A stretch of DNA of 64,000 nt from Planctomycetota bacterium (GTDB lineage: Bacteria > Planctomycetota > UBA8108 > UBA1146 > JAJFFE01), in contig JAJFFE010000316.1 in NCBI GenBank assembly GCA_021776775.1, positions 617-64,616 on the forward strand, read 5' to 3'. Made by a program: the position numbers and the translations under genes. The notes beneath the pieces were generated by a model. It was not told the DNA's origin. It saw nothing but the letters and a program-made list of their open reading frames with translations, and did no database searches. Positions 649 to 57,237 of this stretch are shown here, one piece after another (within the stretch, counting starts at the first letter, position 1; every line of letters starts with the position of its first letter).

Positions 649-2508
649 TCACGGGCAGTTGTCGAACTCGTCGCATGGTAATCGATCGGGGTTGGGCTCG
701 ACGCCGCAGGCGGCGAATGGCGCGGAGGGATCAGCGCCGCCATCGAACAGGCCGGTGAGCGCGAAAATCGGATCTCCGATATCGAGTCCGCCGTCAGCGT
801 TGATGTCCGCGGCGGCCGCGCATGGTGGTTCCGCCCCGGATTCGAAAAGGTGAGAGAGTAGGTAGATCGTGTCTGCGATGTCGTAGAGGCCGTCGTTGTT
901 CGCGTCGCCGCGCCGGAAGGGGACTTGGCTCGCAGCGACGGGTGCCACCGGGTTCAGCTCAACGTTGCCGTCGATCTCGGCCGGGTCGAGTGCCACTCCC
1001 GCGGAAATGAAGATGTTGGTGACGAGAGGTGTTCCGAGCGTCTCGGTCCAGGTAAGCGCAGCGTCGACGCTGTCGGAGAACCCGATCAGTTCGGCGGCGT
1101 TGGTCTGGTAAGCGACGGATACCAAACTCGCGGGGGCGTCGATCGTGATGGTCTCCGCGCCGAGGAAGCTGTAGACGGTGCCGAGCGTGACGCCGTCGGC
1201 GAACAGCGTCGCTTCGAAGTAGTCTGGACCGACCCCGCCGGCAAGTGCGGCGAGCGCGTTGACCGCAACGACGTTGGTCGCCTGAAGCGCGGTCTCCGGG
1301 TGCGCGAGTCCGAAGGAGAATCCTTGGGTGATCGTCGCGCCGGAGGCGTCGGAGAACAGGAGGTCGACCGAGAAGTTCGCGGCACCGGTGGCCGGGTCGA
1401 CGTCGATCGAGTGGTTTCCGGCGTCCATCACGAGGTCGCTACTCGTGGGTGGGTCAATCGGGCCACCACCACCCCCGGAGCCGCTATGCGGCGGCACGCC
1501 GGGCGGATTCGAGTCTTGGCTGTTGATGGTGATGAGTCCGTTGACCAACTCCGGCACGATCGGCTCGAGATCTTCCACCAACAACGTGTCGGTTTCCGGT
1601 ATGCCGACCGTGTCGCAGAACGCAATCTCGACGGCGGATCCGACCGGACCGACCAGGGAATACTCGACATCGAGAATTTCGAGGTCGTCTCCGACGGGAA
1701 GCACCACGCCGGCGAGGAAGCTGACCAAACAAAGGTTGAGCACGCCGTCGGAGTACGCCTCGGCGATCCAGAAGTCTGGATTGAGCGCCACGGTGTCGGC
1801 ACCCATGTTGGCCGAGATCGGATACAGGTCGTTTTCGTCGCTACAAATCGACATCGACCAGCCTCGAACCAACGACCCGCCATTATCGAACAGGACGGTG
1901 ACGTCGGCGCGTTCGTCGGCGGCGAACGTCGGAAGTTCGAAGCTGTAGTCACCGCTCCCCGTCGGCGGTGGGTCAATCGGTGGGTGCGGGTTGGGGTCAG
2001 TCGCGACGATCGTGATCGAGCCTGCGGTCGTCGTGGGTGTGATGGACACCATCTCGACGACCACCCACGGCAGTACGACCGGGGTGCCGAGCGTGCAAAT
2101 GGTCAACGGGCTGACTTCACCGGGAGCTCCGAGCATCGAGTACTCGATGTCGAGAACCTCCAAGCCGAAACCGACCGGGAAGACCTCGACGCTCATGAAG
2201 TCGACGATCATGCCGTACGTGACTCCGCCGCCTTCGAGATCGATCACGACAAAGTCCGGGTTCACCGCGACGACGTCGCTTCCCGGTTCCGCGGTTACGG
2301 GAAGCACCAGGGATGGCGTGCTGCACACGCCCATGGAGAATCCCCCTACGTTGCCACCCAGATTATCGAACTGTATGGTCGCGACGACTCGTTCGTCGCC
2401 GTCGACGTTCGGTGCGTTGAACGTGTAGTCACTGCTCTGGCAAAAGACAGTATCTGCGACAAAGAGCGTGCACAGAAGCACCGCTATCGCACGGGTTGTT
2501 CTCAGCAT
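649..2508 (-). CDS. Secreted protein with three ~170-aa cohesin-like tandem repeats and a C-terminal Cys-rich dockerin-like module
   Basis: N-terminal signal peptide MLRTTRAIAVLLCTLFVADTVFC. Three internal repeats start DYTFNAPNVDGDERVV.., DYSFELPTFAADERADV.. and DLVMDAGNHSIDVDPATG... Each carries AVNPDF / ALNPDF motifs reminiscent of the cohesin VYPD core. The protein ends RRGDANNDGLYDIADTIYLL...CAAAADINADGGLDIGDPIFAL...CDEFDNCP. Confidence 0.8.
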   Translation of the reverse strand: MLRTTRAIAVLLCTLFVADTVFCQSSDYTFNAPNVDGDERVVATIQFDNLGGNVGGFSMGVCSTPSLVLPVTAEPGSDVVAVNPDFVVIDLEGGGVTYGMIVDFMSVEVFPVGFGLEVLDIEYSMLGAPGEVSPLTICTLGTPVVLPWVVVEMVSITPTTTAGSITIVATDPNPHPPIDPPPTGSGDYSFELPTFAADERADVTVLFDNGGSLVRGWSMSICSDENDLYPISANMGADTVALNPDFWIAEAYSDGVLNLCLVSFLAGVVLPVGDDLEILDVEYSLVGPVGSAVEIAFCDTVGIPETDTLLVEDLEPIVPELVNGLITINSQDSNPPGVPPHSGSGGGGGPIDPPTSSDLVMDAGNHSIDVDPATGAANFSVDLLFSDASGATITQGFSFGLAHPETALQATNVVAVNALAALAGGVGPDYFEATLFADGVTLGTVYSFLGAETITIDAPASLVSVAYQTNAAELIGFSDSVDAALTWTETLGTPLVTNIFISAGVALDPAEIDGNVELNPVAPVAASQVPFRRGDANNDGLYDIADTIYLLSHLFESGAEPPCAAAADINADGGLDIGDPIFALTGLFDGGADPSAPFAACGVEPNPDRLPCDEFDNCP

Positions 2509-2521
2509 TCGGTGCTCCTTT

Positions 2522-2884
2522 CTACGGGCAAGCTACATAGGAATCGCAGGAGGTGAGGTCGGCGGTCGGATCGTCACCGCAGCTACTCGGCGGCGGAATC
2601 GGCGGAGATCCGGCGGTGAACAGGTCGGCCAGGAGCACGATGGGGTCGGCGATGTTGACTTCGCCATCGTCATTGATATCGGCGGCGTCGAGGCAGGGGA
2701 GGTCTGACTGACCCGATAGGAAGACCAAGCACTCTATGACGTCTGCGATGTTGATCGCGCCATCGCCTCCGATGTCACCCCGGACGAAGTCGTCCGCTAG
2801 CGCTTGATTCGGAGCGATCGAGACGACGACCGCCAGAGCAAGAGTCGCAAGCGCGCCCCCTAGGCTCTTGGAGAATTTCGACAT
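2522..2884 (-). CDS. Small secreted protein consisting only of signal peptide plus Cys-rich dockerin-like module
   Basis: Internal start MSKFSKSLGGALATLALAVVVSIAPNQALA (signal peptide) is preceded by GAGAGGAAACTCG-ATG. The remainder is VRGDIGGDGAINIADVIECL...CLDAADINDDGEVNIADPIVLL...CDSYVACP. The ORF track runs further upstream to 3034, but that N-terminal extension lacks a signal peptide. Confidence 0.7.
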   Translation of the reverse strand: MSKFSKSLGGALATLALAVVVSIAPNQALADDFVRGDIGGDGAINIADVIECLVFLSGQSDLPCLDAADINDDGEVNIADPIVLLADLFTAGSPPIPPPSSCGDDPTADLTSCDSYVACP

Positions 2885-3000
2885 CGAGTTTCCTCTCACG
2901 AGCAAAATTTTCGTTCTGCGTCCCTGCAGAGCGTTCACACAGATGATCCCGTGCTCCGCCTCCCGGTGACGAAGAAGTGGAGATAGATTTACGTTTCGCA

Positions 3001-4401
3001 TCATGGCGCGCACGACGTTGCCGGGTAGTAGCAATAGGGGAGAGTGTCGTCGGTCGAGTCAGCCGTGCACGGGCCGAAGGGGCTGCCCGTCGAGAAGAGT
3101 CCGTCCAAGATTTGAATGACGTCTCCGATCCCCATCGTGCCGTCGTCGTCGAAGTCGGCGGCGTCTTGACAGGTGGGAGTAGCGTCGTCGCCGAAGAGTG
3201 CCCCGAGTAGCAGAATCGGATCGGCGAGGTCAATCACGCCGTCGCCCGTGGCATCTCCGCGCCGGAAGTTGGTGATCGACGGAGTCGAGGCGTTGACGAA
3301 CACTTGCAGACTATTGGCGACCGAGTTCGCGACCACGACATCCAGGGCTCCGTCGCTGTTGACGTCGATCGATGTGAGAGAGACGCAGTTCGATTCGGTC
3401 GAAAAGACGACGGCGGCATCGAACCCACCAGAAAGGTCCCCTTCGTTGAACGACAACTCGTCACTGCCCGCGTTGACTGCCGCGACATCGATAGCGCCGT
3501 TCAAAGTGAAATCCGCGAGCAGGGTCGCTCGGGGTTGTTGACCCGCGGTCAGCGATACCGATGGAGCGAACCCTCCACCGGGCGTGGCGAGCATGAACGT
3601 AATGATGTCTTGGTTCGGGCAGGGAATGACCAGGTCCAAGAGGCCGTCTTGATTCAGGTCGTGCGTCGAGATGAACCAGATTGAATCGTCGATGCCGAGG
3701 TTGAACGGAACGATGGTCGGGAAGCCGCCGGTGCCGTCGCCGTGAAGCAAGCCGAAGGTGCTGTCCGTCGAGTTGCTGACCACGAGGTCGAGGTGGCTAT
3801 CGCCAGTGAACTCTCCGGACACCACGAACACCGGCGTCGTCAGGAACGCCAAGCCGAGGCTCGCCGAAAACGTGCCGTCCCCGTTTCCGTAGAACACTCG
3901 GAGCAAGTCGTCGCCGTGCGCCGTCACCGCGAGGTCGACCGAGCCGTCTTCGTTCAGGTCAGCGGTTGCCAAAGACGTTGGCGCGTTCCCGCATGGTATC
4001 GGTGTCTGTGGGATGAACGTCCCGTCGCCAACCCCGAGCAGCACCGTGAAGGACGCGTCGAAGATGTTGGCTGCGATCAGGTCGAGTACGGCGTCGTTGT
4101 TGACATCGTCGACGACCAAGAAGAACGGCGAGCCCGTGGCATACTCGACCATCGGCCCGAATCCACCGGTCCCGTCTCCCAGCGTGATCACTACGGAGGA
4201 GCCGAGGGTGCTCGCGATGGCAAGGTCCACGTGGCCGTCTCCGTCGAAGTCTCCCGAGACGACGCTTTGCGGAGTCTCCACACTTAGTGCTGCCGATTCC
4301 GCGAACTCGACGTCTCCGTGGCTCACGCCCGTCAAGCTTGCGAGTAACAGCGCCACGACCAGCACACGGCGACAGCTGTCGCGTATGGCTTTCGTTCTCA
4401 T
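3001..4401 (-). CDS. Secreted FG-GAP/VCBS-repeat beta-propeller protein with C-terminal Cys-rich dockerin-like module
   Basis: Signal peptide present. Repeated FG-GAP signatures: GDFDGDGHVDL, ADLNEDGSVDLAV, GEFTGDSHLDLVV, HDLNQDGLLDLV, IDVNSDGALDVVV. C-terminus RRGDATGDGVIDLADPILLL...CQDAADFDDDGTMGIGDVIQIL...CYYPATSCAP. The start overlaps the upstream gene stop by 4 nt (ATGA). Confidence 0.85.
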   Translation of the reverse strand: MRTKAIRDSCRRVLVVALLLASLTGVSHGDVEFAESAALSVETPQSVVSGDFDGDGHVDLAIASTLGSSVVITLGDGTGGFGPMVEYATGSPFFLVVDDVNNDAVLDLIAANIFDASFTVLLGVGDGTFIPQTPIPCGNAPTSLATADLNEDGSVDLAVTAHGDDLLRVFYGNGDGTFSASLGLAFLTTPVFVVSGEFTGDSHLDLVVSNSTDSTFGLLHGDGTGGFPTIVPFNLGIDDSIWFISTHDLNQDGLLDLVIPCPNQDIITFMLATPGGGFAPSVSLTAGQQPRATLLADFTLNGAIDVAAVNAGSDELSFNEGDLSGGFDAAVVFSTESNCVSLTSIDVNSDGALDVVVANSVANSLQVFVNASTPSITNFRRGDATGDGVIDLADPILLLGALFGDDATPTCQDAADFDDDGTMGIGDVIQILDGLFSTGSPFGPCTADSTDDTLPYCYYPATSCAP

Positions 4402-7289
4402 CGTTTCTCCTCCTCGTTCCCCGTTGTTGTCAGATTCAAAGAACGGTCGTCATAGTTGACCTGCAGGGTTGCGATAACACTGAGTTGGTTGGCCGGAGCG
4501 ACACTGACTTGTGCCCGTTCGCCACGCGGCCCGTCTCGCAGCGATACGGAGTAGTTGCCCGTTCCGAGGAAGTCGAATGTGACCTCTCCTTGGTCATCCG
4601 TTCGACCCAGATACACCGCGTCTGCGATATCCCACACTTCGGGGGTGATCCAGAGGTCGCGATGACCCAACGGCACTCCCGTCGTGTTGCTGATCCGGAG
4701 GGTGCGAGCGACGCGGGGTTCGAGCACGATTGGAATCGTGTCCGAGGCCGTCCACACGTAGAACGCGGCGGCATACTCTCGTGTGTAGACCATTCCGCGC
4801 GCGCCGAGGATCGCGGATCCGTCGTGAATCTTGCGCGGCCATCCGTCGAGGCCACCGAAGACAATGACCTCTTCGGTCGTCGGGTAGTCGCGGGGCAGCA
4901 GCACCAAGTTGCTGAGCGTGCGAATCGGTTGTCCGGTCGTGGATCGGAAATCCAACCGTCCGATGCGGTGAGTCGACGTGCGATCGACCACGAGGTCGAG
5001 GGTGTCGCCGACTTTGGCTCGGCACGTGTTTCTGGAGCCGAGGAACCCGAACCGGGGAACGTCGGCGTTGTTTGAGCGGATGAGATCGAACGGTCGCTCG
5101 ACCGCGAGCAGCAGTCCATGCGTGGCGCGCGTGCTTTCGTCACCGCGACTGGAAGTCTCGGCCAGGGCGCCCCAGCGTAGATCGTTGCGAGTCGCACGGA
5201 CCGGGGGGAGTTGACCGAACCCACCGAGTTCGAACCGCCCCTCGGCGTCGGTCGTGATGGACGGCCCCCAAAGTTCATCACCGAGAATGGACCCGATTTG
5301 CAGCGCCACGTCGGCGACCGGGGCGCCCGATCGATCGCGGACCGTGCCTCGGATGAACTCGCCGGCTCGCATTTCAACATCCGCGCGACGCGTTTCGTGG
5401 GCGACGAGATCCGAGATCGCGAACTCATCGCAGCGGTACTCGGCGTGCCAACCGGTGAGGAGGTAGTCGCCTTCCGCCACGCCCGTGAAGCGGTAGAGAC
5501 CGTCGTTATCGCTGGTCGCTTCGGGGAGGTCTCGCGCGAAGAACGTCCCCGTCTGTGGAATCAGGCGCATGCGAAGTCCCGCGAGCGCGGCGCCGTCCGG
5601 CGAAGTCGCGCGCCCTTCGACCACCGCGCCGTCGTCGAGCACGATGAGCGTTTGGTCCGTTGCCTTCAGCGCGCTCTGTGTCGTCGGGTGGTGGGGGTGG
5701 CGTACCGTGACTGCTACCGGCTCGTTTTCGGTGACGGCCAACAGGGTAACGATCCCTTCTTCGTCGCTGTGCGTCGTGAGGGGTGTTCCACGCCACTGCT
5801 TCGTTCGCATTTCGACGACGGCGCCGACCACCGGGACGCCGCGTTCGTCGACCACCGTGCAGTCCCAGGACTCTCCGCGTCGTAGTCGAACCGTGGACGA
5901 CGGTGCTCTTGCGACATCGCTTGCGGCCGCGCACCCATCCGTCTGAATGGAGTAGAAGACGGCGTTCGACTCCCACGAGAATTGCACCCGGCCGTCACGA
6001 TCTGAAACGAGAGTCTCGTACGTTCCCGACGCCGACGGTCCAACCGTGACGGGGACGCGAGCGAGTGGCCGGTCTTGCTCGTCGAGCACTTCGATCGAGC
6101 ACGTCATCGCTGGGTCGAGAACGATCACATACGGAGACGCGTCGGTCGTCCGCGATCGGCACGGCTCGCGATACTCTTGGAATCCCGTCGCTCTCACCGC
6201 AAGTCGCGCCGATGCAAACTCGGTCACGTCGACGGCGATGTATCCGTCCTCGTCGGTGACGCCGACGACTGCCGAAGCGAACGGCTGAGACAGAATGGAA
6301 GGAGCGTCGCGACCTCCGGAGGTGAGCGCGGAGACCATTCGCAGTTGTCCCGTCGAGACCGTGGCTCCGCGAATCGGCGTGCCCCCGATCGCGTTGAGCA
6401 CGCGGACTTGCTGTGTGCTTGCGGACGGCACCAGGGAGTTTGTCGCGACACCTTGTTCGGTCAGGTCGCGGGTAGACCTCGAGGCGTGATCACTGCCGCG
6501 AGTCGCGGTCGCACCCAAACCGTTGCCGGTAGACGTCGGCTGATTCGCAGCCGTCGGGTCCATCACGGTCGGTGAACCGCCGGGCGTGCCGTCCCAGAAA
6601 AGCCACACCAGAACGGCCAACGTCAACAGCGTGAGCGCGATCACTTTGCCTCGGCTGCGCATGGCTCGGTGATCCGTCGCGCGCGCCGTCGATGAACTTC
6701 CAGAGTCCCACGGAGCCGACTCGCGAAGCTGGTCGAGTAGTACCGGTTCTATCCCCGGCCCGACGCCGCCGAGCAGAATCAAGAACGCGAGTCGACGATC
6801 TCCATCTTCGCTCGTGAACTTCTCGCGCAATAGCGCGAGGCCACGCTTGATCTGCACCCGAACCGTGTTCGTCGCAACGCCGCGAATCTCGCCGATCTCC
6901 GCGGCGGTGTGCCCCCCGTAGAAGTGGAGCGTCACGACGCTTCGATACGGCTCGCGCAGGCTTAGTACATCTTGCGTCAGCGTCTTGCGCAGTTCGCGCG
7001 CTTCACACGGATCGTCGCCAGGGTCGATGGCTTCCGGGCGCGCGGTCGCTTGTTCGCGGTTTCGGCGACGCCCGCTCTCCCGAAACGATCGTCGCGCAAA
7101 GTTGCGCAGTACCGTGGACAGCCACGATGTCAGTTTTTCGCGCTGTTCGGGGGGCTTGCCGAGGGCGGCGACGTAGGTCATCTGCACAATGTCGTCGGCG
7201 GCACTCTCGTCGCGAACCAAGCTGCGGGCCAGTTTCTGCAGCCAGTCGGAGTGAGAGATCAGCTCTTGTTCGAGCATGTCCGGTGGCAT
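4398..7289 (-). CDS. ECF sigma factor fused to a transmembrane helix and a large extracytoplasmic CarboxypepD_reg-like repeat domain
   Basis: N-terminal ~180 aa has sigma-70 region 2 (DDIVQMTYVAAL) and region 4 HTH (LREPYRSVVTLHFYGGHTAAEIGEIRGVATNTVRVQIKRGLALLREKF). The frame then continues with no stop into MRSRGKVIALTLLTLAVLVWLFW (TM helix) and ~750 aa holding at least 5 Ig-like units of CarboxypepD_reg type (e.g. IRGTVRDRSGAPVADVALQIGS...TTDAEGRFEL). Confidence 0.8.
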   Translation of the reverse strand: MPPDMLEQELISHSDWLQKLARSLVRDESAADDIVQMTYVAALGKPPEQREKLTSWLSTVLRNFARRSFRESGRRRNREQATARPEAIDPGDDPCEARELRKTLTQDVLSLREPYRSVVTLHFYGGHTAAEIGEIRGVATNTVRVQIKRGLALLREKFTSEDGDRRLAFLILLGGVGPGIEPVLLDQLRESAPWDSGSSSTARATDHRAMRSRGKVIALTLLTLAVLVWLFWDGTPGGSPTVMDPTAANQPTSTGNGLGATATRGSDHASRSTRDLTEQGVATNSLVPSASTQQVRVLNAIGGTPIRGATVSTGQLRMVSALTSGGRDAPSILSQPFASAVVGVTDEDGYIAVDVTEFASARLAVRATGFQEYREPCRSRTTDASPYVIVLDPAMTCSIEVLDEQDRPLARVPVTVGPSASGTYETLVSDRDGRVQFSWESNAVFYSIQTDGCAAASDVARAPSSTVRLRRGESWDCTVVDERGVPVVGAVVEMRTKQWRGTPLTTHSDEEGIVTLLAVTENEPVAVTVRHPHHPTTQSALKATDQTLIVLDDGAVVEGRATSPDGAALAGLRMRLIPQTGTFFARDLPEATSDNDGLYRFTGVAEGDYLLTGWHAEYRCDEFAISDLVAHETRRADVEMRAGEFIRGTVRDRSGAPVADVALQIGSILGDELWGPSITTDAEGRFELGGFGQLPPVRATRNDLRWGALAETSSRGDESTRATHGLLLAVERPFDLIRSNNADVPRFGFLGSRNTCRAKVGDTLDLVVDRTSTHRIGRLDFRSTTGQPIRTLSNLVLLPRDYPTTEEVIVFGGLDGWPRKIHDGSAILGARGMVYTREYAAAFYVWTASDTIPIVLEPRVARTLRISNTTGVPLGHRDLWITPEVWDIADAVYLGRTDDQGEVTFDFLGTGNYSVSLRDGPRGERAQVSVAPANQLSVIATLQVNYDDRSLNLTTTGNEEEKR

Positions 7290-7671
7290 TGAAGAAGCCC
7301 CTCACCCATGGCCAGTCCCACGCGAGACCGGCAGAGAACTCGCCTGCACAACGCGTCGGTACGACGTTGTGAAGACGCAGGTTACGACAGTCCGAATGTA
7401 GCCCCAAAACGACGCTGCGCAATCGACTTGGCGGGACCTCGCCGCCGAAGCCCTCGGGGCGCGATCCGTTGGGCTCACCCGACTTGCGACTCCCATCGCC
7501 CGTCAACGTACCACGCGGCGAGAGGAACCCGAGTCGGCCAGGCCTATTGAGCGACATCCCGTGACTGAGAGAGGCGTGACAATAAACTGGGAAAACTTTC
7601 CCCGGCCAGTGATTCTCGCCTCGGTAGGATCCACGCCTGGCAGACCTTTCAACTTTCACTGAGGAGCCCCC

Positions 7672-7839
7672 ATGTCCCCGACTGAAACGGCCATCCCGCA
7701 AAAAGAGTTCGACCGTATCGCCGCGATGATCCACAGCGACGCGAGTCCGGTCGGCATCGACGCCAAGACCACCCACGTGATCATCATCCACAAGCTCGAG
7801 TCCATCGAGCGCCGTCTCACCGAACTCGAAGCTCGTTGA
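7672..7839 (+). CDS. Small hypothetical protein (55 aa) upstream of ECF sigma gene
   Basis: Not in the ORF track (below its length cutoff). ATG is preceded by a strong SD ACTGAGGAGCCCCC-ATG. Translation MSPTETAIPQKEFDRIAAMIHSDASPVGIDAKTTHVIIIHKLESIERRLTELEAR. Lies 66 nt upstream of the sigma gene on the same strand. Confidence 0.4.
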   Translation: MSPTETAIPQKEFDRIAAMIHSDASPVGIDAKTTHVIIIHKLESIERRLTELEAR

Positions 7840-7905
7840 ACTCCGTCAAGTCCCCCGTGAGCGGACTCGTCCGGGCGGGCGTCTTGGCAGTATCCTGAGT
7901 GTCCC

Positions 7906-8496
7906 ATGACTGAGCACGACGATAGTGACGAACGAGTGCGAACCGTAACTCGCCTTCTCGGCGCCTTGGACGACATCCCCGGGGAACCGTCGGAGGCGTT
8001 GCTGCCCATCGTGTACGAAGAGCTTCGCGCTATCGCACGCCGTCGCATGGTGGAAGAGCCGGCCGGGCACACCCTGCAAGGGACCGCACTGGTCCACGAA
8101 GCGTTTCTTCGTCTCGTCAAAGACGAAGGAGCCCGCTGGCAGAATCGTCGCCACTTCTTCGCCGCGGCCGCAGAGGCGATGCGCCGCATCCTGATCGAGC
8201 GCGCGCGCCGCGTTTCGCGGGTGAAGCGCGGAGTTGACCGACGCCGCGTGGACATCGATGAGATCGAGGTCACGGCCGAACCGCAGAGCCACAGCCTTCT
8301 CGATCTAGATGAAGCGCTGATCGAGTTCGAGTCACGCTTCCCCGACAAGGCGAAGATCGTCAAACTGCGCTACTTCGCAGGGCTGACCGCCGCGGAAACA
8401 GCAGACGTCATCGGTGTTGCGGAGATCACCGTGCACAAGCAGTGGCGCTTCGCGCGCGCGTGGTTGCTGCGCTTCCTCGGCGGCGCTGCTCAATAG
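7906..8496 (+). CDS. ECF-type RNA polymerase sigma factor (planctomycete Sigma70_ECF / PF07638-like)
   Basis: 196 aa. Region-2-like LPIVYEELRAIARRRM...ALVHEAFLRL. C-terminal HTH KIVKLRYFAGLTAAETADVIGVAEITVHKQWRFARAWL. This architecture is typical of the kinase-associated ECF group. Confidence 0.85.
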   Translation: MTEHDDSDERVRTVTRLLGALDDIPGEPSEALLPIVYEELRAIARRRMVEEPAGHTLQGTALVHEAFLRLVKDEGARWQNRRHFFAAAAEAMRRILIERARRVSRVKRGVDRRRVDIDEIEVTAEPQSHSLLDLDEALIEFESRFPDKAKIVKLRYFAGLTAAETADVIGVAEITVHKQWRFARAWLLRFLGGAAQ

Positions 8497-9388: not shown

Positions 9389-11884
9389 CTAGGATCCGGT
9401 CCCGAGTTTGGGAGTCGGCCGCTCGGGCGGGGGTTCGCCGTACAAGATCGCCTCGTACGTGGCCACTTCGAATGGCTTCTCGAGCCGCTTGAACAGCGTG
9501 ATGAGATGCTCGAGCGTGCTTTGAGATCGGGGGTGGTGGGGCCCGATTTCACGGAGCTGAATGCTCCACGCGTGGAGCAGCGCTTGTTTGGCTCCGTCCA
9601 GATCGCCCGCACCTATGAGACATGCGCCCTGCAGCGAATAGGATGCTGCCGCAGAGACTGAGTCCTTGCCGTGTAGTGTTTCGATGAGCTCGGTCGATTC
9701 TTGGTAGTACGTCGCCGCTTCGGCGTGCTCGCCGCGATAGACCAAGCAGTCGGCGAGGCCGCGAATCGGCATGATCATGTTCACCGTCGGGCGATCGAAG
9801 TCGAGGCGCGCGCGTTGGTCGCGAAACAGCGCCTCCGCGCGAGCGATCTCGCCACTTCGCATGAGCGCGTGCGCGTAACCGCTCTCGGCTCGCATGCGCA
9901 ACGGGTGGCTATCGCGATACTCTTTCTTCAATGATTCGATCGCTGAAACGTAGAGCTGCTCCGACTCGTCACTGTCGTTCGTGAACGGTGCGAAGTCGAG
10001 CATTGCAATGATGACGCGCCGTTCGGAGGGATCGCCGCTTCGAATGATCTTGTAGGTGACCTCGCGGAGTTGTTGGATCCCATCCAGACTCTTCTTCGGA
10101 TCGATCGAATAGGCGAGCAGTCTGGCGAGGGACCGCTCTGTGGACAATCGGCGCGGGTGTAGTTCAGGAAGAATGCGTTCACCAATAGCACGGCTTCGGC
10201 GCAGGATCTCCTTGGCGCGGTCGTAGTCGTGTTCTCCGCTGTATATGTCGGCGAGCGCGTTCAGCATGTCGACCGTATCGGTGTGCTCTTCTCCGTTCAG
10301 GTCGATGGTGTCGGCCAAGCACTCCTCGGCGAATGGGATCGCCTTGCCGGGCATGCCGTTGTGATTGAGGGCGCGGGCGATGGCAGAGAGGAGGTCGAGA
10401 CGGAGTTGCTTGCGGTGCGCGAATTCGACGCGTACCTGCTCGCCCATCGATACCAGCAGGTCGACGAGTTTGACGTCGGGACCTTCGAGGTCAGGAGAGG
10501 GCGCGGTGAACACCCTCATCAAGAACTGGTTTATCTCGTTGGCTCGCGTCGCCTCGTTCTGGGCTTGAATCGCCGCAAGCTCTGCTTTGCCTTTTTCTCG
10601 AAGGGCGAGCACGGTTCCGATCGACAGCGCGATGATCGCGACCGCCATTGCGCCGAGGATGGCGCGGTGGCGTTTGGTGTACTTGGTCAGTAGATAGATC
10701 GTGCTTGCGGGTCGTGCCGAGATCGGTTCGTTGTGGCGGTAGCGGCGAAGATCGGCCGAGAACTCCGAGACCGTCTGGTACCGGCGATCCCGTTCCTTGG
10801 CCAGAGCCTTGGCGACAATGGTCGCCAAGTCGCCGCGGTACGCTCGATCGACAGAATGCAGCGACAGGGCGTCTACTTCCTTGATGATGCTGATCGCTTC
10901 GTGAAGCGTCTTGCCCTTCACGTCGTTGGGCAGGCTCCCCGCGAGCAGCTCGAACAGCACGACGCCGAGGGAATAGACGTCCGATCGTGTGTCGAGAAGA
11001 TCCGGATCCCCGCTTGCCTGCTCTGGGCTCATGTACTGAACCGTACCGAGGATTTGACCGGCGTAGGTATGCGGGGCGGCTTCGTCGTCACTGTCGGACG
11101 AGAAGACGCGCGCGACGCCGAAGTCGAGCACCTTTACCCGGCCGGACTCGTCGACCAAGATGTTGGCCGGCTTCAGGTCTCGGTGGATGACTCCCTTTTG
11201 GTGGGCGTGTTGAACCGCTTCGCAGATTTGCTGGAAGAGTTCGAGTTTAGCGTCGGTATCGAGACTGTGGATCGTAACGAACTTCGTAATGGAGACGCCT
11301 TGCACGAACTCCATGGCGAAGAACGGGATGCGCTGGCCGTTCCCGGTAGCGGTCCCCGCCTCGAAAACACGGGCAATGTTCGGGTGCTCGAGCAGTCCGA
11401 GCACTTGGGATTCGTGCTCGAAGCGACGCTCGGCGCTCTGCGACGGAAACGCGCTGCGCATCACTTTCAGCGCGACCGTGCGCTTGGGGCTGTCCTGCTC
11501 GGCGCGATAGACCACGCCCATTCCGCCTTCGCCGATCGGTTCGATCAAGCGGTAGTGACCGACCCGCTGTCCCGGTTCGAGTTCGTTCTCTTGGAGCAGT
11601 GCGTGGATGGCGATCGGGTCGGGATCGAGCAGAGGTGTTTCGGACGCGTCACATTCCAGGAGCGCGTGCAGCTCGGCGCGAACGGTCGAGTCTTCCAGCG
11701 CTTCGAGGAACTGCTCCCGAGCTTCACCGACCAACTCCACGGCACGATCGAAGAGCGACTCGAGTTCGCGATCGCTGGGTAAGGTCGGTTTTCGTGACAC
11801 AGTTCGTTCCCCCCAGCCCGGATTCACCGCCGTTGAATGGTCGCCCGATCGCTCAATGATACGGGTGGCGACGACGACTTCCAC
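9389..11884 (-). CDS. Serine/threonine protein kinase with transmembrane segment and C-terminal TPR-like domain
   Basis: Hanks kinase motifs GHYRLIEPIGEGGMGVVYRA, VALKV, HRDLKPANILV, DFGVA, GTVQYMSPE. TM ILGAMAVAIIALSIGTVLAL. The long C-terminal helical repeat region is TPR-like. An alternative GTG start at 11800 has a GGGGGGAA SD. Confidence 0.9.
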   Translation of the reverse strand: MEVVVATRIIERSGDHSTAVNPGWGERTVSRKPTLPSDRELESLFDRAVELVGEAREQFLEALEDSTVRAELHALLECDASETPLLDPDPIAIHALLQENELEPGQRVGHYRLIEPIGEGGMGVVYRAEQDSPKRTVALKVMRSAFPSQSAERRFEHESQVLGLLEHPNIARVFEAGTATGNGQRIPFFAMEFVQGVSITKFVTIHSLDTDAKLELFQQICEAVQHAHQKGVIHRDLKPANILVDESGRVKVLDFGVARVFSSDSDDEAAPHTYAGQILGTVQYMSPEQASGDPDLLDTRSDVYSLGVVLFELLAGSLPNDVKGKTLHEAISIIKEVDALSLHSVDRAYRGDLATIVAKALAKERDRRYQTVSEFSADLRRYRHNEPISARPASTIYLLTKYTKRHRAILGAMAVAIIALSIGTVLALREKGKAELAAIQAQNEATRANEINQFLMRVFTAPSPDLEGPDVKLVDLLVSMGEQVRVEFAHRKQLRLDLLSAIARALNHNGMPGKAIPFAEECLADTIDLNGEEHTDTVDMLNALADIYSGEHDYDRAKEILRRSRAIGERILPELHPRRLSTERSLARLLAYSIDPKKSLDGIQQLREVTYKIIRSGDPSERRVIIAMLDFAPFTNDSDESEQLYVSAIESLKKEYRDSHPLRMRAESGYAHALMRSGEIARAEALFRDQRARLDFDRPTVNMIMPIRGLADCLVYRGEHAEAATYYQESTELIETLHGKDSVSAAASYSLQGACLIGAGDLDGAKQALLHAWSIQLREIGPHHPRSQSTLEHLITLFKRLEKPFEVATYEAILYGEPPPERPTPKLGTGS

Positions 11885-11983: not shown

Positions 11984-12823
11984 TCAGCGACTCAGGCTCG
12001 GAAGCATCCAGGTGGGCGAGTGTTCGTGATGAGTCACTCCCGCGACTCCGGTGCTGACAAGGGCAGAGTCGATCCCGGCCGCGTTGGCGCCCGCGATGTC
12101 GGTACCGAGCTGATCACCGATCATGATGACGTTGCGCGTACCGACACGCGACAGAGCGGACTCGAAGATTGGCGCTCCCGGTTTGCCGAGGTGCGTGAAA
12201 CGCCACTCGGCTTTGGGATAGCGTGTCTCGAGCGCCGCTTCCAAGAGCAGCGCGATTCCACCCGCCGTGAACCCGAACGAGCCTTCGGCTCGCGGATAGA
12301 TGACGTCTGGGTTCGGGAGCAGCAGGTGCACCGTGTCGCCGCGATCGAGCCTTCGGTATAGCGCGCTCAACGTGTCATCGAGGCTGTCGATGAACGAGTA
12401 GCCCTTCGCGCCGCACGGGATCACCACGTCGAACTCGGCTTGCGGTGACGGGGCGACGATCGTGGCGCCGAGTGACTCGACGAACGAAACCGCGCTCGGG
12501 CCGCCGAGCACCAGTGCACGGGGATTCGTCAAGCCGTGGTCGCTAAAGTGCTCGCCGATCAACGATCCCGAGCTGATGACGCGTTCGACAGGGATGGGAA
12601 TGCCGTACCCGGCGTATCGTTCTGAGCACTCTTGCGGAGAACGTGACGCGTCGTTGGTCAGGATGTAGTACGGCCGATCGTACGACTCCAAATGCTCGAT
12701 GAGAGCGTCGGCTCCCGGGATGGGGCCGTCGTCGTGGACTAGTACGCCGTATGCGTCGAAGAAGATCGCTTCGTAGCGATCGAGGATCTCACTCATCGAA
12801 ATGGTCGGAGTGTCGTGCGTCAT
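11984..12823 (-). CDS. HAD-superfamily hydrolase, subfamily IIA (NagD/sugar-phosphate phosphatase-like)
   Basis: N-terminal FFDAYGVL (DxDG-type motif I), ILTNDAS (motif II) and C-terminal IGDQLGTDIAGANAAG (motif IV). Confidence 0.8.
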   Translation of the reverse strand: MTHDTPTISMSEILDRYEAIFFDAYGVLVHDDGPIPGADALIEHLESYDRPYYILTNDASRSPQECSERYAGYGIPIPVERVISSGSLIGEHFSDHGLTNPRALVLGGPSAVSFVESLGATIVAPSPQAEFDVVIPCGAKGYSFIDSLDDTLSALYRRLDRGDTVHLLLPNPDVIYPRAEGSFGFTAGGIALLLEAALETRYPKAEWRFTHLGKPGAPIFESALSRVGTRNVIMIGDQLGTDIAGANAAGIDSALVSTGVAGVTHHEHSPTWMLPSLSR

Positions 12824-13923
12824 AGTTCACTTTCGATGAGTTTGGCCAACAGCGCCGCGCTTCGCGGCCAGCGGTAACGGTCGATTCGATCCTGGCGCCG
12901 CAGATCCAACGCTGCGCGTTGATCTTCGTCGGTCAACAGCGTCTCCAGCCCGCGCGCGATCGACGCGGGTTGTAGTGGATCGCAGTACAGAACGCTATCG
13001 CCCAACACCTCGGGCAGGCTCGACCCGTCTGAAACCAGGCAGACCGTTCCGCACGCCAACGCTTCCAACGGCGGGAGCCCGAACCCTTCGTAGAGCGAAG
13101 GGTAGAGGAACGCGCGCGCCGACGTGTACAGCGCGGCTAGTGTCTCGTCATCGACGTCTTGCAGTTCGACGATGTCTTCTGAGCCGCGAACGCCGTCATG
13201 AGCGAAGATCGCTCCGCCGCCTCCGACGACGACGAGCTTGTGTCGCGACCGGAGGTCGTGACCGAGCAGTCGCCACGCTTGCACGCTACCGGCCACGTTC
13301 TTCCGAGGATTGCCGCCCCCCATTGTCAGCACGTACTCGCCGAGTTCGGTGACGGCCGGGGTGGGGGCACGCGGACTCCAGAACGGATCGACTCCGCACG
13401 GCACGACCGAGACGGTCTCTCGGTCGGCGATGCCGAATCGGTCGAGTTCTTCTCGGCTGAACTCGCTGTCCGTGATGACTCGACGGACGCGCCGCGCGAG
13501 GCGCGGCCACGTCAGGCGGGTGTAAGTCCGAAACGGCCACGAGAACCAGTCGTTGCTCGCGAACGGTGAAGCGTCGTGCAGGGTTAACAGTTGGTTGGCG
13601 AGGACCAGCGGTCCCATGTTGCACGGCGACCAGAGTAGATCGATCGAGTGCCGGCGACAGAGGACCGGCAGTTTCATCTGTACCCAAGCCGGCAGCGGCA
13701 GCGAGGAGTTGTCGCGCACGACGTGGTCGGCGATCGACTCCGACGGCGCCACGCCCGGGGCGAGGATCACCGTTTCGAAGGAGCGATCATCGAGGTCGGT
13801 CAAGGCGCGAGTCAGTTCGCGGGCGTAGCGCTGCACTCCGGTTTGTCGCTGCGCGAGGAAGCTACCGTTGATCCCGAGGCGGCGCGCTCGGCGAGCCTTT
13901 GGCTGTGTCACGAACGAACCCAT
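12820..13923 (-). CDS. Glycosyltransferase family 4 (GT-B, group 1)
   Basis: C-terminal EGFGLPPLEALACGTVCLVSDGSSLPEV motif. 4-nt overlap with the HAD gene. Confidence 0.85.
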   Translation of the reverse strand: MGSFVTQPKARRARRLGINGSFLAQRQTGVQRYARELTRALTDLDDRSFETVILAPGVAPSESIADHVVRDNSSLPLPAWVQMKLPVLCRRHSIDLLWSPCNMGPLVLANQLLTLHDASPFASNDWFSWPFRTYTRLTWPRLARRVRRVITDSEFSREELDRFGIADRETVSVVPCGVDPFWSPRAPTPAVTELGEYVLTMGGGNPRKNVAGSVQAWRLLGHDLRSRHKLVVVGGGGAIFAHDGVRGSEDIVELQDVDDETLAALYTSARAFLYPSLYEGFGLPPLEALACGTVCLVSDGSSLPEVLGDSVLYCDPLQPASIARGLETLLTDEDQRAALDLRRQDRIDRYRWPRSAALLAKLIESEL

Positions 13924-15638
13924 CCGAGTTCCTCGGCGGGGTAGCAGAACGAGGTACCGGTCAGTATTCCGTCGCAGACGACGTCGAGTCCCCGGCTCGA
14001 TCCCGGCTCGAGTTCGGCGAGTGATCCCACCGCCGGTCGGTAAGGCGGGTCGCCCGCGGTCGCTTCCATGAACTCGATCGGAATCATCCGGCGGAAGAAG
14101 ATGTGGTACGCGTAGCGCCGTGCCCGTTCGAGCCGCTCCTCGTCGAGCGGGTCGAGCGGAAGCTGCGTCAGAAGTTCGGCGTACTCTTCACGGCTGGCGG
14201 CGTCGTACGTAAACCCTTTGCCTCGAACCCACGCTTCGCCGGCGACGATGACCGGTTTGCCGGTGGCCGCCAACTCGACACCGGTCTTGGTTCCGTAGAT
14301 GAGCGCGGCGTTGCATTGATCGAGTAGCGCGTAGGTGCTGACTTCGCTCTCCGGCGGAACAATGCTCACGTTCGCGGGCAGGACTGGGAATGCGCGTTCG
14401 ACTTCGTCGACCACTCGTTGTCGTGACGGCAGCGTGCCACGGATCTCGGCGGGGTGGACGCGAATGACCAGGTGCAAGTCGGGGCGTGACGCGAAGTGAT
14501 CAATCGTTTCGAGGACCCAGTGCATCATGGACTCGAACGCGTTGGCCGCGTAGTGCAGCTGCGCATCCCAGATGACGTTTGTGAGCAGACCGATCACCGG
14601 TTTGTCGAGCGGGATCTTCGCTTCGCGGGTGATCGACTCGAGCGCTTCGCGCGGGCGATTGTGAAACCAGATCCAATCCTCGGTGCCCCGGCGTCGGCTG
14701 TCGAGGTAGGTGAGCAGCGCGTCACGTTCTTCGTCGCCGAACGGGATCGACTCCCACTCCGACGTCGGCTCGTCGAGGAGCGTGTGGTGATACGTATCGT
14801 CGTGGCTGAAGATGAAGCACTGCTTGCGATAGGCCGGCGTCCAATTCACGACGCGCAACCCGACGGCTCGGGCGACCGCTCCGATGATTCCCTGCGGCAC
14901 GTAGATCCCGTGGTGGAACGCGGTCGCCGTGTAGTCGTGTTCGGCGAAGAGTCGGCGGCTCACGGTGGCGGTGGTGAGCGCCGCGCGAAAGTAGCGTCGC
15001 AGGACCGCGTCGCCGGTCGGCTCCGATTCCAGATCTCCGCGGGCGAAGAACCGTAACGCGCCAGCGAGTGCGTGCTCTCCGGTGGGAACGCCGTCGAGTT
15101 GGTGGGCGCGGATTTGTTCCACTGTGAGGTCTCGAGCGAGCGCGGTGTGCTGGCCGAGTTCTTCCGGCGTGATCCAATCGCTGTAACGGTGGACGCGGAA
15201 TCCGAGTTCTTCGAAGTAGCGTTGGCCGGGTTTGAAGCAGCCGCCGCAAAGGTCGGCTTGCGGCCCGTGCTGGGCGAACGACGCCGGGTCGGCATGGGCT
15301 CTTACTTCGCACCGTTGGCACGCGTCGAGGATTCCGTCGCAAAGGAGCACGTCGACGTCCGCGCCGCGCAGCGTGAGCGCCATCCCGAGCACGCTTTCGA
15401 GCGTCGTCCCCGCCCAGTATCCACCGAGGCTGGTGGCGAGGAGTATGCGAGGACTGGGCGGGTTGGATGGTCCGGGAGCGCGCTGCGCGCACGATTGCCA
15501 CTTATCCCAATCGGGGCCGAGCAGCGCCGACCACCGGGGGTAGGCCGAGGTCCGGCCGCGGTACCAGCGAACCAGCCGGCGCAGTGTGCGAAACCGTCGT
15601 AACGTCTCGCGCACGTTCACGCTCCGTTCGGGGGGCAA
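13908..15638 (-). CDS. GT-B fold glycosyltransferase-like protein, possibly KpsS/KpsC (Capsule_synth) family ulosonic-acid transferase
   Basis: 576 aa. Rossmann-like halves: RILLATSLGGYWAGTTLESVLGMALTLRGADVDVLL and KPVIGLLTNVIWDAQLHY...HLVIRVHP...ALIYGTKTGVELAATGKPVIVAG. The family call is tentative. Confidence 0.55.
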   Translation of the reverse strand: MPPERSVNVRETLRRFRTLRRLVRWYRGRTSAYPRWSALLGPDWDKWQSCAQRAPGPSNPPSPRILLATSLGGYWAGTTLESVLGMALTLRGADVDVLLCDGILDACQRCEVRAHADPASFAQHGPQADLCGGCFKPGQRYFEELGFRVHRYSDWITPEELGQHTALARDLTVEQIRAHQLDGVPTGEHALAGALRFFARGDLESEPTGDAVLRRYFRAALTTATVSRRLFAEHDYTATAFHHGIYVPQGIIGAVARAVGLRVVNWTPAYRKQCFIFSHDDTYHHTLLDEPTSEWESIPFGDEERDALLTYLDSRRRGTEDWIWFHNRPREALESITREAKIPLDKPVIGLLTNVIWDAQLHYAANAFESMMHWVLETIDHFASRPDLHLVIRVHPAEIRGTLPSRQRVVDEVERAFPVLPANVSIVPPESEVSTYALLDQCNAALIYGTKTGVELAATGKPVIVAGEAWVRGKGFTYDAASREEYAELLTQLPLDPLDEERLERARRYAYHIFFRRMIPIEFMEATAGDPPYRPAVGSLAELEPGSSRGLDVVCDGILTGTSFCYPAEELGWVRS

Positions 15639-15901
15639 CGAGGTTTCTCGAGCGGAGTTGCGTGCGGTTCACGTGCTCGAGTTGGGGACCGCATTCTCGG
15701 AATCGATGCGGAGGGTTGCAAGGCAAACAACGGTTCGTGAGAGAGCTCTGTTTTCTGGCGCAACCGTCCACTATCCCTTGCACATCCGTTCCCTCGATGT
15801 AGAGTGAAACTGCGCGTGGCATGCGTTCTAGCAAGTACTGATCTTGTTGAGACTTCAGTCGTGTTCCGCGAGCCTGCACTCACCAAATCCATTGCCATAA
15901 C

Positions 15902-16798: not shown

Positions 16799-16886
16799 CA
16801 GTAGCTAGCTTTGAGTGACCGGCTGACTTTAGTTATCCTGAGGTACGCGTGCGCTGTTCGAGCGCCGTCGTGAAAGTAGCGAGGCG

Positions 16887-18359: not shown

Positions 18360-18411
18360 CGTGTGATCAATTTCGGCCGCCAAGGCGAGACAGCCAAGGA
18401 GAACCACAGGC

Positions 18412-30910: not shown

Positions 30911-31052
30911 GCGAAGTCCTGATTCATCTCGTGAATGGGTGTCAAGAGTAGGCACAGTTTGACCGAGTTCGCGCATCCGCGACAGGGATCATCACGGAGG
31001 TCGGGCTGCTCTCGCTCTGGCTTACATCGCGTGGGTCGGCTATACGTCAGGC

Positions 31053-53456: not shown

Positions 53457-53608
53457 GCTGTTCTTCCCCTTGAACGTCGTGATGGCGGAGTCCGCCGCGT
53501 TCAGTCTGTGACGTGTTGTGGTGAGGCGTCGGCGGTCGACCCGGTCGACACCGTGTGATCGTGACTCCGTGTGATCGTTATCCGAGCGCCGGGCAGTGCC
53601 GAATGTGA

Positions 53609-55045: not shown

Positions 55046-55278
55046 TACTCGGTTCACCCTACGAGTCTGGCTTACCAGAACCGACCCGCCAGACATGGAG
55101 AGCACGTCTGGCGAACACTTCTGGCAAGAAACGACAACGTGCGATACGTCGTCGCGGGCAGCCGACGATCGTCCCAACGATGGGTCCCGAGATATGAGTC
55201 GCGACGAGGGTTTGCAGCACCAAGTGGGTTTGCAGGTCGGCGCGGTCGAAGCTCAGGACCGTACGGCGTCGATCGGGA

Positions 55279-56252: not shown

Positions 56253-56399
56253 TGTCTTGCGCCCTCCTGCCGAGCGGTCGACGGGATTGGGTTGCTCGTA
56301 GGCCCCGTCCCCTCTTTCTTCGGCTGGAACGTTCCTGTCGTTCACCCGGTATTCCAGGGGTTTTACGCAGATCGACGTCGTGTTGGCGATGGCGGCGGG

Positions 56400-57104: not shown

Positions 57105-57237
57105 CGTCTGCCTCCTCTCCGAGTCGTAGGAGGGTATCGCGAGTTAGGCACGATCGGTACCCAGCGCTTGACGGATCGTCGGTTCCCAGTGGAGGTTCTG
57201 GCTCGGTCCGCGTTAGTATGGCGGTCGAGGTGGACGC

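Follow-up and report, generated by a model that had tools for sequence, protein, structure and literature searches.

A putative membrane-spanning ECF sigma factor with a transthyretin-like ectodomain at the head of a predicted operon of dockerin-type secreted proteins in Planctomycetota

ECF sigma factors with transmembrane C-terminal extensions have already been described as a class (PMC8999054, PMC7826278, PMC7671368). In IutY of Pseudomonas putida (ECF243), one polypeptide comprises an N-terminal ECF sigma domain, a single transmembrane (TM) helix and, on the periplasmic side, a C-terminal sensor, and regulated proteolysis via Prc and RseP frees the sigma part (PMC8999054, PMC5411451). Members of the actinobacterial groups ECF52, ECF53 and ECF48 (e.g., SCO4117 of Streptomyces coelicolor) consist of an ECF sigma domain and a C-terminal extension with TM helices, an outside domain and a zinc-finger (ZAS-like) segment, to which ECF52 adds a Pro-rich region and a carbohydrate-binding domain; for sigmas of this kind, proteolytic activation has been proposed (PMC8999054). 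ECF57, ECF01-Gob and the other planctomycetal sigmas with diverse C-terminal extensions occur as many paralogues per genome, and their extensions are long and variable (PMC7826278, PMC7671368), ECF57 being described by WD40-like repeats and two conserved cysteines that link sigma2 and sigma4 (PMC8999054). A functional parallel only is offered by SigI/RsgI of Clostridium thermocellum, in which many paralogous membrane sensors carry variable outside domains; this system controls genes of a dockerin/cohesin surface complex and signals by proteolysis, including RseP (PMC10328401, PMC12203970, PMC4711584).

We analyzed a fusion gene of this general kind in a 64-kb stretch of DNA (the window). A single open reading frame with an ATG start encodes 963 aa, and its product is divided as follows:

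4398..7289 (-), whole gene, ECF sigma-TM-ectodomain fusion (reading frame, domains, end-to-end orthologues, AlphaFold2 model with pLDDT 82)
7068..7256 (-), sigma region 2, aa 12-74
6822..6962 (-), sigma region 4 with helix-turn-helix, aa 110-156
6645..6806 (-), cytoplasmic linker, aa 162-215, predicted disordered, with the family motif GDRR..(W)..L..LxG
6591..6644 (-), single TM helix, aa 216-233 (hydrophobicity, AlphaFold2 helix, position in relatives)
6423..6590 (-), spacer of low complexity just outside the membrane, aa 234-289 (pLDDT and alignment)
4416..6422 (-), ectodomain of about seven beta-sandwich modules (transthyretin/CarboxypepD_reg type) and a family-specific insert, aa 290-958

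The Pfam families Sigma70_r2 (PF04542, aa 12-74) and Sigma70_r4_2 (PF08281, aa 110-154) were matched with 36.9 bits (cutoff 24) and 33.6 bits (cutoff 25.7), respectively, and the NCBIfam model TIGR02937 (sigma70-ECF) with 58.5 bits (cutoff 42.9); sigma regions 3 and 1.1 had no Pfam match in the fusion protein. By region content and thresholds, the predicted protein belongs to the ECF (group 4) sigma-70 family. The domain also matches sigmas with solved RNA polymerase holoenzymes, both in sequence (SigL, SigW, SigE) and in fold, and regions 2 and 4 are kept above ECF thresholds in 25 of 25 aligned orthologues. Given these thresholds, the likeness to holoenzyme sigmas and the retention among orthologues, the sigma domain looks competent.

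The hydrophobic helix VIALTLLTLAVLVWLFW (aa 216-233, Kyte-Doolittle 2.06) overlaps a helix modelled by AlphaFold2 at aa 214-230, and nearly all relatives have one TM segment at the same position. Five K/R residues precede the helix in this protein and none follows it; over 25 orthologues, the sigma side has 63 K/R residues in total and the opposite side 35. This bias, together with the lack of an N-terminal signal peptide on the fusion protein, places the repeat domain outside the cytoplasm, in agreement with the single-helix, extracytoplasmic topology proposed in the initial annotation. Another hydrophobic stretch (aa 167-185) was rejected as a second TM helix: it is as hydrophobic as a TM helix in no more than 4 of 25 orthologues and coincides with the linker motif, which is conserved in family alignments. 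The linker has about 55 aa here and varies from about 35 to 110 aa across the family; its pLDDT falls below 50 at aa 162-164 and 172-215, as does that of the spacer at aa 232-289, which varies in length and sequence in the alignment of relatives. The extension had also been interpreted as a sensor or anti-sigma-like module, and this holds only loosely, in the sense of a tether plus a sensor, because the linker is modelled as disordered and Pfam detects no anti-sigma domain in it, either in the fusion protein or in 25 orthologues. Inhibition would therefore rest on tethering alone.

The ectodomain matches CarboxypepD_reg (PF13620) in four stretches (E 5.8e-28, 97.5 bits, above the Pfam threshold), with further matches to Big_1, MG4 and CarbopepD_reg_2. 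AlphaFold2 models aa 290-958 (~670 aa) as all-beta, mostly with pLDDT >90 and with 51 strands, and the region belongs to the PF13620 transthyretin-like domains, including their TTR-like beta-sandwich fold. The strands amount to about seven sandwich modules plus the insert, so that the earlier count of at least five Ig-like domains was correct. The family-specific insert motifs are RDxRW (aa 703-706) and GSRNTC (aa 751-756). No binding or catalytic site was recognisable in the modules, which are generic beta-sandwiches. In the orthologue alignment the ectodomain is conserved end to end with 30-37% identity and invariant motifs; judged from this alignment, it is under selection.

The protein shares the polarity and the single helix of IutY; however, IutY has a FecR-type anti-sigma domain and a TonB-dependent receptor signal, whereas the ectodomain here is a TTR-like repeat array. 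Neither FecR nor any other anti-sigma Pfam family was found in the fusion protein or 25 orthologues, and no TonB-dependent receptor is encoded among the neighbour genes; with both elements missing, it is not an IutY-type (ECF243) hybrid. It differs from ECF52, ECF53 and ECF48 in phylum and ectodomain and in its cysteine-free linker: there is no cysteine between aa 96 and 376, zf-HC2 is matched neither here nor in 25 orthologues, and the relatives are Planctomycetota. The features described for ECF57 and ECF01-Gob, rather than group HMMs, set it apart from these groups, as no WD40 family is matched in the protein or in 25 orthologues, and the sole cysteine of the sigma part (C95, in the sigma2-sigma4 linker) is unconserved. 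A WD40-bearing relative, P0038, is a weak and remote match to the fusion protein. SigI/RsgI, a Firmicutes system, consists of separate sigma and anti-sigma proteins, with another sigma class and CBM/PA14-type sensors; we found no sequence relationship to it and no RsgI-type family match in the fusion protein or 25 orthologues, and the sigma here is of the ECF type. In the orthologous locus L158 (3069-6363), the same kind of ectodomain belongs to a membrane protein with a single pass whose gene follows that of an ECF sigma by 1 nt, but there as two genes, and the sigma is of another, PF07638-like ECF type (only 23.5% identity); no published description of or experiment on such split pairs of an ECF sigma and a TM-CarboxypepD_reg protein was found. 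The layout, in which a transmembrane C-terminal extension follows an ECF sigma and which is conserved among relatives, is of a known general kind presumed to be activated by regulated proteolysis, whereas the ectodomain type on such a sigma, the operon and the candidate promoter are not described in the literature searched and are apparently new.

Downstream of the fusion gene lie the following features:

4398..4415 (-), putative translational coupling junction, Shine-Dalgarno-like run GAGGAGGAG (4407-4415) and ATGA overlap (4398-4401), read from the sequence
3001..4401 (-), operon gene 2, FG-GAP repeat protein, secreted, whose Cys-rich C-terminal domain is dockerin-like (FG-GAP_3, E 2.1e-32)
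2522..2884 (-), operon gene 3, a dockerin-only protein that is small (120 aa, counted from an internal ATG) and secreted (Dockerin_1, E 1.1e-4)
649..2508 (-), operon gene 4, secreted protein of 619 aa that has three all-beta modules and whose C-terminus resembles a type I dockerin

The stop/start overlap with the first dockerin-module gene, claimed previously, is borne out at 4398-4401 in AAACGATGAGAACG; the Shine-Dalgarno-like run stands 5 nt ahead of the downstream ATG, and locus L158 has an equivalent 4-nt GTGA overlap. Gene 2 has a signal peptide visible in its translation, and its orthologues immediately follow the fusion gene in L087 (34% identity), L158 (39% identity) and L157. Gene 3 is 45% identical to its equivalent in L087, and gene 4, which has no Pfam match, has a dockerin match to PDB sequences (E 1.4e-4) and orthologues in L087 and L158. 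The order sigma, FG-GAP-dockerin protein, dockerin protein is found again in L087, L158/L159 and L157, three orthologous loci that are independent of one another. Neighbouring genes differ across the wider family; within the narrower orthologous subfamily, the fusion gene heads a conserved operon of secreted FG-GAP/dockerin-type proteins. Locus L160 holds homologues of the two dockerin genes, and both the fusion gene and the promoter-like motif described below are absent there within 4.8 kb.

Upstream regions contain three further elements:

7553..7582 (-), TTGTCACG-N19-GTC, a candidate for the cognate promoter, shared with orthologous loci and lying 292 nt 5' of the ATG
7589..7603 (-), GGGGAAAGTTTTCCC, an inverted repeat flagged as a hairpin, which adjoins the candidate -35 element on its 5' side
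2942..2971 (-), degenerate motif copy (CGTCAC...GGGATCATC) ahead of operon gene 3, from an anchored alignment and weaker than the other copies

The pattern TTGTCACG-N17-19-GTC precedes sigma genes and downstream operon genes here and in L087 and L158, loci whose proteins are only ~34% identical. Across eight short regions from three organisms, the 7-mer was present in five, and 5 of 2000 shuffles gave as high a count; for the 6-mer alone, only P~0.03 was obtained. TTGTCAC has only three copies in the whole window. The spacing is somewhat long for an ECF promoter, and the orthologous promoters have A/T-rich, partly similar sequence at the position of the inverted repeat. The motif shared by sigma and operon genes suggests autoregulation and operon control by the fusion sigma. 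Together with the conserved gene order, it supports the link between sigma gene and dockerin operon drawn in the initial annotation, and the operon is probably switched on by the fusion sigma.

We consider it fairly probable, by analogy with the systems above, that the protein is a one-polypeptide transmembrane signalling device, in which proteolytic release of the tethered sigma leads to transcription from its own promoter and of the dockerin operon. In this architecture, the sigma domain lies in the cytoplasm, tied by the flexible ~55-aa linker to the single membrane helix, and the flexible spacer is followed by the rigid ~670-aa array, located either in the periplasm or on the cell surface. 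At rest, the tether would prevent the sigma domain from working freely. The ectodomain would read an outside cue, for example, the assembly state of the dockerin proteins or a ligand such as a polysaccharide or an envelope component, and trigger regulated proteolysis through a site-1 cut and then an intramembrane site-2 protease. The freed domain would bind RNA polymerase and transcribe from TTGTCACG..GTC promoters, with positive feedback through its own promoter and with the dockerin operon promoters among the targets. Proteolytic activation of fused sigmas has precedent in IutY (Prc and RseP) and SCO4117 (PMC8999054), and the split pair in L158, in the classic sigma/anti-sigma layout, is a supporting arrangement. 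Activation by proteolysis or at the membrane is an inference by analogy; no gene for a site-2 or other protease lies within the window.

Membrane-bound one-component activators such as ToxR and CadC illustrate another mode, in which the sigma would never be released: it would work tethered and recruit RNA polymerase to membrane-proximal DNA, while the ectodomain controls conformation or clustering. The long, variable linker, modelled as disordered, could give the necessary reach, neither an anti-sigma domain nor a protease signal was found, and the target genes adjoin the sigma gene and encode exported proteins. However, a sigma has to accompany RNA polymerase through initiation, a 55-aa tether would limit it to DNA at the membrane, and those fused sigmas with experimental work that one review cites (IutY, SCO4117) are proposed to act via proteolytic processing (PMC8999054); we regard tethered action as unlikely. 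A more specific version of sensing is doubtful: the ectodomain would directly monitor the cohesin/dockerin-like assembly of its own operon, for instance by binding the dockerin-type C-terminal domains of co-expressed proteins, so that the locus forms a self-contained four-gene sense-and-respond cassette under a membrane-integral sigma with its own promoter code (TTGTCACG..GTC).

Among 171 representatives with E<=1e-30, about 24 distant orthologues align end to end at 30-37% identity; of the 149 top-scoring representative relatives, some 134 are long fusions that begin with the sigma domain, a further homologue search yielded 38 fused relatives, and species-representative genomes contain 58 long fusion ORFs, almost all from Planctomycetota and including the cultured Saltatorellus ferox. 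Judged by these sequences, the fusion gene is real and its architecture is conserved as a large planctomycete family. In Saltatorellus-like and other Planctomycetota lineages, fused sigmas form multi-copy arrays. It is very unlikely that the extension is a mere relic of gene duplication without a regulatory role, in which a second copy of a sigma core came to lie before an existing membrane protein gene and the product is regulated at the level of transcription only. Fortuitous insertions of this kind have been argued by Pinto et al. for Planctomycetes (PMC7671368), sigma-less TM-CarboxypepD_reg proteins adjoin family members in L001, L003 and L004, and short-tailed relatives occur (e.g., P0042, P0046). 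Conversely, invariant motifs and similarity over the whole ectodomain extend across at least 24 representative clusters, and gene order is also conserved in the subfamily; from the conservation of ectodomain and gene order we argue for selection on the fused form.

Still less probable is that the N-terminal domain is a PhyR-like sigma decoy or scaffold on a protein with mainly a structural or adhesive role in the envelope. PhyR_sigma2 is matched weakly (E 0.058 here, and in 3 of 25 members), and the ectodomain resembles pilin/adhesin-type Ig arrays; however, these matches are far under cutoff, the receiver domain is absent, all 25 orthologues pass the ECF thresholds for both regions, and the promoter-like motif is conserved alongside the gene. 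An assembly or sequencing artefact, in which a frameshift joined a sigma gene to a downstream anti-sigma or membrane protein gene, as the existence of split pairs elsewhere (L158) might suggest, is already effectively refuted by the same unbroken architecture in many independent assemblies and one complete genome, by the different ECF type of the split L158 sigma, and by codon-position GC (0.67/0.52/0.74) that stays steady across linker and TM helix, with GC3 continuous over the junction. With no stop codon between sigma and TM helix in ORF 4398..7289(-), the single frame postulated at the outset stands, and the end-to-end orthologues exclude the frameshift merger against which it was to be checked.

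Planctomycetota encode very many ECF sigmas, and for almost none of them is the signal, the regulon or the mode of activation known. The locus offers testable handles: a defined orthologous subfamily, a confident sensor model, a conserved four-gene operon as the likely regulon and a candidate promoter, and, in addition, a wider-family relative in a strain available in culture, Saltatorellus ferox Poly30. With these handles combined, how a membrane-protein sigma factor is activated can be tested directly. If the ectodomain did monitor the assembly of its own operon's products, fused sigmas would rank among the main routes of signalling in the Planctomycetota, Saltatorellus-like and other lineages alike. 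The locus connects ECF signalling with the poorly understood dockerin-type proteins of planctomycetes.

The gene at 4398..7289(-) is a single open reading frame without interruption, encoding 963 aa from its ATG. Pfam models place Sigma70_r2 at aa 12-74 and Sigma70_r4_2 at aa 110-154, and also detect CarboxypepD_reg (E 5.8e-28, four stretches) together with the related beta-sandwich families Big_1, MG4 and CarbopepD_reg_2. The protein scores 58.5 bits with TIGR02937, the NCBIfam model of the ECF superfamily, above its cutoff of 42.9. A single segment, VIALTLLTLAVLVWLFW (aa 216-233), is strongly hydrophobic; the basic cluster HRAMRSRGK precedes it and an acidic/neutral stretch follows. The codon-position GC content (0.67/0.52/0.74) keeps its register across the linker, the helix and the spacer. 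By reading frame, Pfam, TIGR02937 and codon-position GC, the fusion of sigma factor, TM helix and repeat array in one frame, as described in the initial annotation, was right in every checkable detail. The reported ATGA overlap between its stop codon and the start of the first dockerin-module gene is also seen in the sequence; the run GAGGAGGAG lies 5 nt upstream of the ATG of that gene.

The fusion is not confined to this contig. A word-indexed search returned 38 relatives (636-1562 aa); in nearly all of them, Sigma70_r2, Sigma70_r4_2 and CarboxypepD_reg are combined in a single protein, the named sources being Planctomycetota MAGs. When 1.84 billion representatives were searched exhaustively, 171 proteins matched at E<=1e-30. 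Some 24 of them (P0134-P0159, 957-1051 aa, 30-37% identity) form one unbroken alignment with the fusion protein, from approximately residue 8 to residue 915-954, and about 134 of the best 149 representatives start with the sigma domain and are 600 aa or longer. A scan of species-representative genomes, in which the best match was 27-44% identical to the fusion protein, yielded about 50 loci with 58 ORFs of 600-1550 aa that begin with the same sigma domain; almost all of these loci are from Planctomycetota, including the complete genome of the cultured Saltatorellus ferox Poly30. In nearly all relatives, a TM-like segment occurs once and only once, at residues ~175-290. Because fused relatives are many, align end to end and carry one TM-like segment at a similar place, a frameshift merging two genes, which the initial annotation had raised as a concern, is excluded for practical purposes: the frame is continuous, and the fusion is not an artefact.

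An AlphaFold2 model built with the alignment of 25 orthologues has a mean pLDDT of 82 and a pTM of 0.67. In this model, sigma2 and sigma4 are confident, aa 162-215 and 232-289 have pLDDT below 50, with the TM helix (aa 214-230) between them, and the ectodomain (aa 290-958) is all-beta, with 51 strands and pLDDT mostly above 90. This ectodomain comprises about seven sandwich modules, in line with the earlier estimate of at least five Ig-type domains; four of them have the canonical CarboxypepD_reg start signature. A family-specific insert contains motifs that are invariant among the orthologues, i.e., GD-EL.G at ~aa 670, RDxRW at aa 703-706 and GSRNTC at aa 751-756. Comparison of a profile of the C-terminal ectodomain to PDB sequences gave nothing informative, only a marginal CnaB match (E 0.022). 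From the lack of a signal peptide, the single TM helix, the cytoplasmic type of the N-terminal domain and the charge bias (over 25 orthologues, the 15 residues preceding the helix hold 63 K/R in total and the 15 following it hold 35), we infer that the sigma part is inside the cell and the repeat array outside. A second TM helix at aa 167-185, which would flip the topology, was rejected, as this stretch is the conserved linker motif, is TM-like in only 4 of the 25 orthologues, is followed by a strongly basic loop, and is modeled by AlphaFold2 as low-confidence short helices. The cytoplasmic linker has the short conserved motif GDRR..W..L..LxG. It has no cysteine and therefore no zinc-finger-type anti-sigma segment, and no anti-sigma domain was detectable in the linker of the fusion protein or of any of the 25 orthologues.

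ECF sigma factors with C-terminal extensions, including TM helices, are an established class, with extensions in 19 groups (PMC7826278); examples are ECF48, ECF52, ECF53, ECF57 and IutY (PMC8999054). Unlike IutY, the fusion protein has no FecR domain; unlike the zinc-finger-bearing ECF groups, it has no zinc finger; and unlike ECF57, it has neither WD40 repeats nor the conserved cysteine pair. Judged by these described features, it appears to fall outside each of the named groups. Nothing relevant on a sigma-fused CarboxypepD_reg-type ectodomain was found in the literature searched.

In the broad family of sigma/ectodomain fusions, the neighbors vary from locus to locus, and the dockerin operon is not conserved; the adjacent genes encode either paralogous fusions or CarboxypepD_reg membrane proteins that lack a sigma part. 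One metagenomic contig (L005, 1-12218) carries four adjacent paralogous fusion genes, and a MAG locus (L003, 8001-14322) carries two convergent ones, which shows strong local expansion of the family. Sigma-less single-pass proteins with the same repeats lie alongside fusion genes in three loci (L001, L003 and L004). In L158 (3069-6363), a stand-alone 176-aa ECF sigma, of another type than the fused one, is followed after 1 nt by a 920-aa protein, in which a short cytoplasmic head leads through one TM helix into CarboxypepD_reg repeats. This split pair is the classic sigma/anti-sigma gene layout, and it shares the locus with an orthologue of the fused gene. Given that the same repeats occur on fusions, on their sigma-less neighbors and in the split pair, the CarboxypepD_reg-type ectodomain appears to form the outward-facing portion of sigma-linked membrane proteins, whether the sigma is fused to it or encoded separately. 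In other relatives, the sigma-linker-TM core is kept but the tail is short or unrelated, which fits the variable C-terminal extensions of planctomycetal ECFs (PMC7671368).

The initial annotation had suggested, from the ATGA overlap, that the fusion gene controls the dockerin operon, and this operon link gains real support from the orthologous subfamily. In L087 (P0135), L158/L159 (P0139) and L157 (P0136), the gene directly after the fusion gene encodes a protein with FG-GAP repeats and a dockerin-like C-terminus; these proteins are 34% and 39% identical to that of the window over the full length, and the L157 gene runs off its contig. The genes that come next in L087 and L158 encode homologues of one or both of the other operon proteins, the small dockerin protein and the 619-aa protein, and the 4-nt stop/start overlap recurs in L158. 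The fusion proteins of these loci are only ~34% identical to that of the window, so that the shared gene order does not reflect recent common descent. L160 is a counter-example, with homologues of the small and 619-aa genes and no fusion gene within 4.8 kb. An alignment-based metagenome scan gave mostly sigma-only matches and no further orthologous operon. All operon proteins (window, 649-4401(-); L087, 10245-17251; L158, 9997-12929) share one C-terminal domain with two EF-hand-like Ca loops (dockerin-like), four conserved cysteines and a terminal Cys-Pro. This recurring planctomycete module is below every Pfam threshold (Dockerin_1, 21.8-22.7 bits vs a cutoff of 22.9). The secreted 619-aa protein (649-2508(-)) has three all-beta modules of ~150-190 aa and a type I dockerin-like C-terminus, with no Pfam match. 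By eye, its modules look cohesin-like; a search for support of this likeness gave no sequence match outside the dockerin part and an AlphaFold2 model too uncertain to use (pLDDT 33).

We aligned eight upstream regions, taken from the sigma genes and the downstream operon genes of four loci (the window, L087, L158 and L157). In six of the eight, GTC stands 18-20 nt after TTGTCAC(G), often as CGG.ATGTC; degenerate copies precede the small-dockerin gene of the window and the L157 sigma gene. The most widespread 6-mer, TGTCAC, is in 6/8 regions, a count reached in 30 of 1000 dinucleotide-preserving shuffles; the 7-mers TTGTCAC and TGTCACG are in 5/8 (5 of 2000 shuffles), and an 8-mer is in 4/8 (11 of 2000). 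In the whole 64-kb window, TTGTCAC has only three copies, counting both strands, compared to 6.5 expected. The features upstream of the fusion gene are:

7553-7603, minus strand: candidate promoter region TTGTCACG..GTC with the flanking inverted repeat
7576-7582, minus strand: TTGTCAC copy, 292 nt before the sigma ATG
7589-7603, minus strand: perfect small inverted repeat GGGGAAAGTTTTCCC, directly 5' of the candidate -35 element

A scan flagged the inverted repeat as terminator-like, but there is no end of a minus-strand gene upstream of it; the repeat could instead act as an operator or UP-like element. A bipartite motif search of 57 broad-family upstream regions gave nothing above shuffles, and none of 56 broad-family paralogues has TTGTCAC in its upstream region, only the region of the window having it. 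The motif is specific to the orthologous subfamily; its absence from the paralogues would follow if promoter specificity differs from one paralogue to the next. No motif was found in L160 within the 4.8 kb examined around the small/619-aa gene homologues. As judged from eight short regions, TTGTCAC..GTC is a candidate cognate promoter of the fusion sigma; its presence at both the sigma gene and the operon genes would imply autoregulation plus control of the dockerin genes. A PhoD-like phosphatase gene (28277-30976(-)) has a loose copy of the motif, TCGTCACGG...ATGTC at 31356-31386(-), ~410 nt before it, which may be due to chance.

Several other features of the window were recorded. A small ORF (~55 aa, MSPTETAIPQKEF...) divergent from the fusion gene is followed by a TIGR02999/PF07638-type ECF sigma (E 6e-58), with a Ser/Thr kinase with TPR repeats nearby (7672-8496(+), 9389-11884(-)); the set resembles a kinase-linked ECF module. 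These three genes also occur together near a fusion gene in L051, and in L160 an ECF of this type comes after the 619-like gene. A 1750-aa protein (31740-36992(-)) has ~15 Ig_3/I-set-type immunoglobulin domains (E 3e-159), which are more typical of eukaryotic proteins. Two surface-sugar gene clusters (12820-20243 and 52344-59219) encode NeuB, two CMP-sugar cytidylyltransferases, a DegT aminotransferase, an epimerase/dehydratase, a sugar transferase, a GT4 glycosyltransferase and a capsule synthesis protein, suggesting synthesis of a nonulosonic-acid-containing glycan.

By analogy with IutY (Prc and RseP) and SCO4117 (PMC8999054, PMC5411451), and with membrane anti-sigma factors generally, the fusion sigma would be switched on by regulated proteolysis; no protease genes were found within the 64-kb window. 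The main rival is a sigma that is active while still tethered to the membrane, for which the long disordered linker leaves room. The co-encoded dockerin-type proteins are the obvious candidates for the signal read by the ectodomain. No evidence of their direct binding to the ectodomain was found; functionally, the control of cellulosome genes by SigI/RsgI offers a parallel (PMC10328401, PMC12203970, PMC4711584). The concept of a TM-extended ECF sigma is known and will not surprise specialists; the conserved operon and the candidate promoter make this fusion sigma an unusually tractable example.
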